Positions 1 through 936 of a DNA stretch of 22,135 bases are shown one piece after another. The notes under the pieces are model-generated. The model had not been told where the DNA came from. It saw nothing but the letters and a program-made list of their open reading frames with translations, and did no database searches. Where the stretch lies: UHGV virus genome UHGV-0094927; one strand, 5' to 3'. Source of the stretch: a virus. The translations under genes were made by a program, and so were the position numbers. The stretch's first letter is position 1. Every line of letters begins with the position of its first letter.

Positions 1-936
1 CAACAACATCCGATATGTCTTCCATGCGGCCATTCAACATTTCGCAGGAATGCAACTAAGAGACATTACTGAATCAAAAATTTATTCAGCAATGCAGAAA
101 ATGACGAACCGGCGTCATGAGGAAAACTGGAAACTCAGGGCAGAAGCATGCAGAAAAAAAGGGAAACCTGTTCCAGAATACACGCCAAAGCCAGCGTCTG
201 TTGCAACGAAGGCTACGCATCTTTCATTTATAAAAGCCCAGCTAAGAGCCGCAGAGCGTGAATGGAAAATGCTTGATAAGGCACCAATTATTAAAATGCC
301 TCAACCGAAGAATAAACGGATCCGCTGGCTGGAGCCTCATGAAGTACAAAGGCTGATTGATGAATGTCCGGAGCTATTAAAGTCTGTTGTTGAATTTGCA
401 CTGGCAACAGGTTTAAGACGCTCGAACATCATCAACCTTGAATGGCAACAAATAGACATGCAGCGCCGGGTGGCCTGGATAAACCCGGAAGAGAGTAAAT
501 CAAACTGCGCGATTGGCGTTGCGCTGAATGATACTGCATGTCGTGTATTGAAAAAACAAATCGGGAATCACACCGTTGGGTATTTGTGTAAAAGGAAAGC
601 TGTACAAAACCAGACGGAACGAAAGCGCCAACAGTCAGGAAGATGCGGTATGACGCAAACACGGCCTGGAAAACGGCGCTGAGACGAGCAGGTATTGATG
701 ATTTCAGATTTCACGACTTGAGACACACCAGGGCAAGTTGGCTGGTTCAAGCCGGAGTCCCGTTGTCAGTGTTACAGGAAATGGGAGGCTGGGAGTCTAT
801 CGAAATGGTTCGTCGATATGCTCACCTTGCACCTAATCACCTTACCGAACACGCACGGCAAATAGACTCGATCCTGAACCCATCGGTCCCAAATTTGTCC
901 CAGTCAAAAAATAAGGAAGGTACTAATGATGTGTAA
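1..936 (+). pseudogene. int: P22-family tyrosine integrase, 5' end outside the window; reading frame interrupted by a 1-nt frameshift near 569-573 and an in-frame TAA at 589-591
   Basis: Frame 2 is open from position 2 (no stop before the listed ORF 50..682) and reads ...[45 protein letters not shown]. The C-terminal catalytic region ([46 protein letters not shown]) is in frame 1 (ORF 643..936, stop TAA 934-936). Frame 1 upstream of 643 reads [26 protein letters not shown]. Integrase lies next to a tRNA-derived att core, as expected. Confidence 0.8.

Follow-up and report, generated by a model that had tools for sequence, protein, structure and literature searches.

The DNA analysed here, called the window throughout, is a stretch of 22,135 nt from virus genome UHGV-0094927. 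Its first kilobase holds the remains of an integrase gene, preceded by a scrap of a tail-fibre-assembly gene on the opposite strand and followed by a partial copy of a tRNA gene, after which come a set of gtr genes and, on the minus strand, the structural genes of a P22-like phage. No complete tRNA was found in the window. The features are as follows, L016 and L021 being metagenome scaffolds that match the window.

Positions 1–32, minus strand: tail-fibre-assembly gene fragment, with 100% identity to E. coli wlxctx60 and fused directly to the truncated integrase.
Positions 33–936, plus strand: integrase pseudogene of the SfI/SfV/SfII/SfIV type (a thrW-specific tyrosine recombinase), codons 87–387 only.
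Positions 569–572, plus strand: site of a 1-nt deletion; the T of CAT (His266) is gone between 570 and 571, which moves the reading from frame 2 to frame 1.
Positions 589–591, plus strand: TAA stop codon, where SfI has Tyr273 (TAC).
Positions 730–732, plus strand: W320R, TGG to AGG (Trp to Arg), in the conserved HDLRHTW motif of the catalytic region.
Positions 951–996, minus strand: attL core of the P22-like prophage, 46 bp that duplicate the 3′ end of thrW (tRNA-Thr) and have the same sequence as the SfI attP core and the thrW 3′ end of wlxctx60.
Positions 997–1286, plus strand: P′ arm of the attP of the incoming phage (HK446/SfX type), leading into gtrA; it departs from thrW exactly at 997.
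Positions 1287–1649, plus strand: gtrA, an ORF with Pfam GtrA_DPMS_TM recorded on the identical gene set of L016.
Positions 1646–2578, plus strand: gtrB, an ORF with Pfam Glycos_transf_2 recorded on the same identical gene set.
Positions 2562–4352, plus strand: ORF of a type-specific gtrC-like gene, 596 aa.
Positions 4495–21621, minus strand: P22-like virion module, ORFs whose identical counterparts on L016 and L021 have recorded Pfam families.

The int genes of SfI, SfIV, SfII and SfV are 96.6–97.3% identical to window 33–996 at the nucleotide level. Homology is first seen at position 33, which corresponds to nucleotide 260 of SfI int, and codons 1–86 are therefore missing; this 5′ truncation removes the start codon and the N-terminal ∼86 residues, the arm-binding domain in the SfI/SfV family. 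The 32 nt upstream gave no alignment with SfI int. In wlxctx60, a PGAP pseudogene labelled 'tail fiber assembly protein, incomplete' ends at the base that matches window position 33, and the whole of this tail-fibre-assembly remnant is 93 bp long.

What is left of the integrase lies in two frames. The 210-aa ORF at 50–682 (frame 2) is integrase-like as far as ...KKQIGNH, ending with the CAC codon at 569–571, and then runs on to a stop at 680–682, while the 97-aa ORF at 643–936 (frame 1) ends at the stop at 934–936 and is preceded in its own frame by HRWVFV (571–588) and the TAA at 589–591. These translations bear out the initial annotation, which had described an integrase-like frame 2 giving way to read-through and a frame 1 reading HRWVFV and then a stop. 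The two lesions that it had placed within about 20 nt of each other are both seen against the 97%-identical intact SfI int, as is the tyrosine that it had expected in place of the TAA. Intact SfI int reads AAT CAT CAC CGT TGG GTA TTT GTA TAC AAG, where the window reads AATCA-CACCGTTGGGTATTTGTGTAAAAG, such that the CAT CAC of SfI has become CA-CAC. Alignment with SfI, the translations and the codon table thus place the loss of a single base at 570/571, within the interval proposed earlier (near 569–573), although the base is a T and not the suggested C, either of which would give His-His. The TAA is 18 nt inside the frame entered after the shift. Two lesions were absent from the initial annotation, namely the loss of codons 1–86 and W320R; TGG is kept at codon 320 in SfI and in the corresponding remnant of E. 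coli GF4-3, so W320R is private to the window lineage.

Both ORFs match the tyrosine recombinase profile PF00589, with E = 1e-18 for 50–682 and E = 4e-20 for 643–936, and the catalytic domain is split between them (profile positions 1–87 and 107–171, respectively). The uninterrupted frame over the catalytic domain expected of a functional tyrosine integrase is thus lacking in the window copy. The pseudogene nevertheless adjoins its cognate att core, the 46-bp core lying 14 bp past the stop codon with the same spacing as in the SfI attP. These data support the conclusion that the integrase gene of the window is dead, and that frameshift, stop codon and 5′ truncation are the products of decay.

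Local sequence error had been put forward as one of two explanations for the broken frame. On this account the integrase would in reality be intact, with the frameshift and the stop introduced during sequencing or assembly, as might be suspected from the frequency of single-base indels among errors and from the distance of only ∼20 nt between the lesions. A 161-nt query across the lesions was compared with 5,426 complete E. coli genomes, in 1,273 of which the segment is present. Identity above 96.3% to this lesion-bearing query was confined to three genomes (6EVA, wlxctx60 and GF4-3), and all three have the lesions; the remaining alleles listed (n=37) each span 162 nt, without the deletion. 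The three genomes are from different hosts and continents, and match window 1–996 with 100% (wlxctx60), 99.9% (6EVA) and 97.4% (GF4-3) identity, so that identical lesions persist even in a copy 2.4% diverged across the remnant. PGAP annotations read in wlxctx60 and GF4-3 describe a site-specific integrase as 'frameshifted; internal stop; incomplete; missing N-terminus', abutted in each by the incomplete tail-fibre-assembly fragment. In a public assembly collection the exact 210-aa product of ORF 50–682 is recorded in 59 blocks, and among contigs from independent samples the lesion region was identical in all 10 inspected (24 read), the 5′ junction being identical in most. The deleted T, moreover, lies outside any homopolymer run, and the first 86 codons are gone as well. 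Because the lesions recur in independent assemblies, sequencing error is excluded as their source, and we give this explanation practically no weight.

Comparison of the copies suggests that the remnant, hereafter the fossil, is old. Between wlxctx60 and GF4-3 it has diverged by 2.4% and the flanking chromosomal genes by 0.4–2.9%, values that would fit a single old scar passed down vertically. Both fossil lineages share the 5′ junction, the frameshift and the stop; W320R and P201L are private to the window lineage, and a second frameshift at codon 127, W164*, W299R and R348Q are private to GF4-3. The ratio pN/pS is 0.14–0.17 for the fossil against SfI, and between the two fossil lineages it is 0.38 (12 nonsynonymous and 9 synonymous changes), which suggests relaxed constraint, the value being below the neutral expectation of 1 and the counts too low to demonstrate neutrality. 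Incoming phages may also have contributed through gene conversion.

It might be argued from this ratio, and from the fact that both ORFs are open and each matches one half of PF00589, that the interruption is functional: a programmed frameshift or read-through, or 210-aa and 97-aa products that work jointly or separately, for example as a regulator or inhibitor of incoming integrases. We consider this extremely unlikely. The 37 alleles listed for genomes other than the three with lesions are all contiguous over the 162 nt, a TAA stands in the very frame that would have to be read, and the arm-binding N terminus is missing, with a gene fragment on the opposite strand upstream. The further frameshift and stop in GF4-3 fall within the 210-aa ORF, and in the window lineage W320R alters a conserved motif of the catalytic region.

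We turn now to the junction on the right of the fossil. Window 951–996 is a prophage attL. The left arm with the core (window 1–996) is 100% identical to the unoccupied site of wlxctx60, where thrW runs on intact, and on the other side window 940–1204 has 93.6% identity to the region annotated as attP in HK446 and 93.5–95.6% identity to related lambdoid phages. A four-way alignment of att sites resolves the window into the B arm of the empty site, the core and the HK446 P′ arm, and L021 into the HK446 P arm, the core and the B′ arm (the rest of thrW) of the empty site. Only at one site, 5 nt to the left of the core, does a difference (T/A) sort by arm, B against P. The matching attR, together with a cognate int, is thus present on L021, which has 100% identity to window 10976–22135.

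The thrW gene at the attR of L021 (5108–5183) ends in ...GGCATCA where ...GGCACCA would be expected, the encoded 3′ CCA reading TCA. Since the HK446 attP and the attL core of the window are normal, this change is private to the scaffold. The G-to-A difference in the core (TGGTG versus TGATG in L021) was considered as a footprint of recombination and rejected, the HK446 attP having the normal G.

The far end of the prophage was read on metagenome scaffolds identical to the window over 11–14 kb, not on the window itself. Identity is 100% for L016 (window 1–14352) and for L021, which comes from a 321-kb scaffold, and 99.99% for L022; L016 and L022 both belong to Scaffold_495, a single contig that runs from the fossil through the entire prophage into a second int, of which it covers the first 369 nt. 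To the right of the window, L021 has ∼330 bp, an IS2, a 123-aa ORF, a 115-aa HTH_17 excisionase, a 386-aa integrase and tRNA-Thr, and beyond the latter proA, proB, phoE, crl and frsA. On the matching scaffolds, xis and the 386-aa int are thus ∼3 kb beyond the right end of the window and adjoin thrW-proA, the element measuring ∼25.3 kb from attL to attR. The PF00589 domain of the 386-aa integrase is complete, and the protein is 100% identical to the Int of HK446, a viable phage, and only 56% identical to SfI Int. The prophage of the window therefore appears, from these scaffolds, to have its own intact int and xis outside the window, and we infer that this second integrase is probably active.

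The initial annotation had taken the broken gene to be the only one serving integration and excision of the element in the window, an assumption that fails because the pseudogene is to the left of attL and so is no part of the prophage. The same assumption would make the gtr prophage an element that has lost its sole means of integration and excision and is stuck in place. The order int, att core, gtrA, gtrB, gtrC is indeed that of the SfI phage genome, and the prophage is defective elsewhere (see below). Once a phage of this kind has integrated, however, int and gtr are at opposite ends of the prophage (PMC3306764); the P′ arm that starts at 997 goes with an integrase of the SfX/HK446 type and not of the SfI type; and on matching scaffolds an intact cognate int, with xis, is found at the other end. 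Furthermore, an unaltered fossil is also present where thrW is empty and where its neighbours are unrelated islands. Taken together, these points make it very unlikely that the broken gene is the integrase of the gtr prophage. Of the earlier description of a decaying, immobilised element, then, the decay of the gene stands, and its assignment to the prophage of the window does not.

The surroundings of the fossil in other genomes are informative in this respect. In wlxctx60 and GF4-3, the counterpart of window 1–996 continues straight into a complete thrW (tRNA-Thr), followed by proA and proB; this configuration is an unoccupied thrW site with an adjoining scar. The left flank of the fossil is constant in public contigs, consisting of KGG, two DUF892 genes and a Mn-catalase gene. 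Its right-hand neighbours in public assemblies are of at least five different kinds, the empty thrW and the prophage of the window included:

L011: intact thrW.
L013: SfI-like P′ arm.
L007, L008 and L012: P4-like island (Ogr/Delta, DUF927, DUF8370), which shares only the 17-bp core TGGTGCCGATAATAGGA.
L006 and L014: two other islands.
The window: 46-bp core, then CTGTAGCACC..., gtrA, gtrB, the gtrC-like gene and the full P22-like virion module.

The fossil thus stays the same while the occupants vary, which makes the broken gene a fixed mark on the chromosome of one lineage, whichever element sits in thrW. A search between the Mn-catalase gene and the tail-fibre fragment for a partial thrW core, as a left-hand att copy of that older element would contain, gave only chance-level 8-nt matches, and the origin of the element as a thrW prophage accordingly rests on position and homology.

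Many elements use the thrW that adjoins the fossil (window 951–996; loci L002, L006–L008 and L011–L014). In one of them (L013, 3445–3490) the core beside the fossil has a 2-nt deletion (TGGTG--ATAAT) and is followed by the SfI-like P′ arm.

The content of the younger prophage is that of a serotype-converting phage with P22-like particles. By its gene content, the gtrABC region (1287–4352, plus strand) is a predicted O-antigen glucosylation module. The 596-aa protein (2562–4352) had no Pfam match at E ≤ 1e-3; its E. coli relatives are labelled 'glucosyltransferase domain-containing protein', and presumably it acts as the type-specific GtrC, which determines the O-antigen modification. The virion module comprises the tailspike, with Pfam Head_binding and Beta_helix matches, the ejection, tail and head-completion proteins, coat, scaffold, portal, both terminase subunits (large and small) and a DUF2560 gene; its relatives in E. 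coli chromosomes reach 95–97% identity. For the 84-aa DUF2560-like ORF (21367–21621) exact look-up returned no record, and for its 129-aa neighbour it returned records. Between the DUF2560 gene and xis on the matching scaffolds, no lysis, antitermination, nin, replication or immunity genes were found, whereas a complete relative has all of these. The place of the missing lysis, Q/nin, replication and immunity genes is occupied by the IS2 (L021 7580–8910, equivalent to window positions of about 22466–23794), which is 99.1% identical to annotated IS2 copies and whose ends were located. What disables the prophage is therefore the loss of those genes in a deletion marked by IS2, its integrase having been kept; judged from its sequence, it appears to be defective despite an apparently complete virion module and intact int and xis.

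Among complete E. coli genomes, the best match to the whole window has 73% coverage and 95.7% identity, starting from 1154, and none reaches 80% coverage. Closely related P22-like gtr prophages in E. coli chromosomes are 94–96% identical and share the window only from 1154 rightwards. Since sharing starts at that point, these prophages have the same gtr and virion modules with different att/int modules at other chromosomal positions, which is ordinary mosaicism.

In our judgement it is very probable that the window begins with the fossil of an older SfI/SfV-type thrW prophage, and that a P22-like prophage with its own int at the far end integrated beside it later. The lesions, the identity of the left arm with an unoccupied site and the match of the right arm to a phage attP are all read directly on the window; for the events of integration and decay we infer the following order. 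An SfI/SfV-type prophage would once have occupied the thrW tRNA-Thr gene, with window 1–936 being part of its last ∼1 kb. Nearly all of this element would then have been deleted, leaving the 93-bp piece of the tail-fibre-assembly gene fused to codons 87–387 of the integrase, and this integrase piece would subsequently have gained the 1-nt deletion and the Tyr-to-stop change, with W320R arising later still. The thrW site would have stayed usable because the older phage had rebuilt thrW on integration. A second phage, combining a P22-like virion, a gtrABC serotype-conversion module and an int-xis-attP module of the SfX/HK446 type, would next have integrated into the same 46-bp core, setting a new attL (951–996) and its gtr end against the old fossil and leaving xis and int at the far, thrW-proA end. 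The fossil itself cannot yield an integrase and, on this reading, does nothing.

Each element of this history has a precedent. The integrases of SfI, SfIV, SfII and SfV (387 aa) resemble window 33–996 down to the stop codon, the 14-bp spacer and the 46-bp thrW core, and differ from it in being intact, the window copy having lost codons 1–86 and carrying a 1-nt deletion in codon 266, a stop at codon 273 and W320R. The sequence of window 1–996 is present with 100% identity in wlxctx60 (NZ_AP045833.1), where its integrase part is the PGAP pseudogene AC6IW3_RS04210 and counterparts are found in 6EVA and GF4-3; thrW is unoccupied in wlxctx60, whereas the core in the window has received a prophage. 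Tandem integration of SfX and SfI at thrW has been shown experimentally in S. flexneri (Sun et al. 2011, PMC3306764). E. coli ES9 has the same architecture as proposed here: the xis-int end of an older lambdoid prophage is followed by the core, gtrABC and tailspike and so on to a second xis-int and thrW-proA. Its two partners are less decayed, whereas in the window the older partner is down to ∼1 kb and the younger is a P22-like prophage with an IS2-marked deletion. Like the window, these cases of tandem lysogeny (SfX then SfI, and ES9) involve successive phages at one thrW core and an int-core-gtrA junction. A junction of int, core, P′ arm and gtrA covering at least 80% of window 1–1300 occurs in 29 complete genomes, ES9 being the one that was inspected.

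The closest known relative of the younger att/int module is the int-xis-attP module of HK446 (SfX type), whose integrase protein is 100% and P′ arm 93.6% identical to those of the prophage. HK446 is a lambdoid siphovirus, whereas in the prophage of the window its type of module is joined to P22-like virion genes, again by ordinary mosaicism. A decayed cryptic prophage at thrW, with the pseudo-tRNA ptwF, is known from E. coli K-12 as CP4-6. The records of phages with an HK446-type att describe it as 'type CP4-6; similar to thrW and ptwF'.

It is conceivable that the fossil is not wholly inert, the hybrid attL or the 97-aa ORF influencing superinfecting phages, although we regard this as speculative and highly improbable. 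Were it so, the retained 3′ end would act as an SfI/SfV-type P arm beside an SfX-type P′ arm, giving an attL hybrid that is attP-like, and ∼900 bp of 97% homology to SfI, SfII, SfIV and SfV could affect how such phages integrate, excise or are captured by recombination. Another possibility is that the 97-aa C-terminal ORF would hinder the integrases of incoming serotype-converting phages.

The biology involved is known throughout, namely integration at tRNA sites, tandem lysogeny, prophage decay and mosaicism, and the identical sequence is already a RefSeq pseudogene. The locus nevertheless holds a lesson for annotation, in that an int with an att core and a gtr operon beside it looks cognate and is here what an earlier phage left behind at the tRNA site. 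Anyone who assessed the mobility of the prophage by this pseudogene would arrive at the wrong reason for its defect, since int and xis are intact and it is the lysis, regulation, replication and immunity genes that are missing. In conclusion, the window is a clear case of the thrW hot spot being used serially, in which one lineage-specific scar is followed by at least five different later right-hand configurations.
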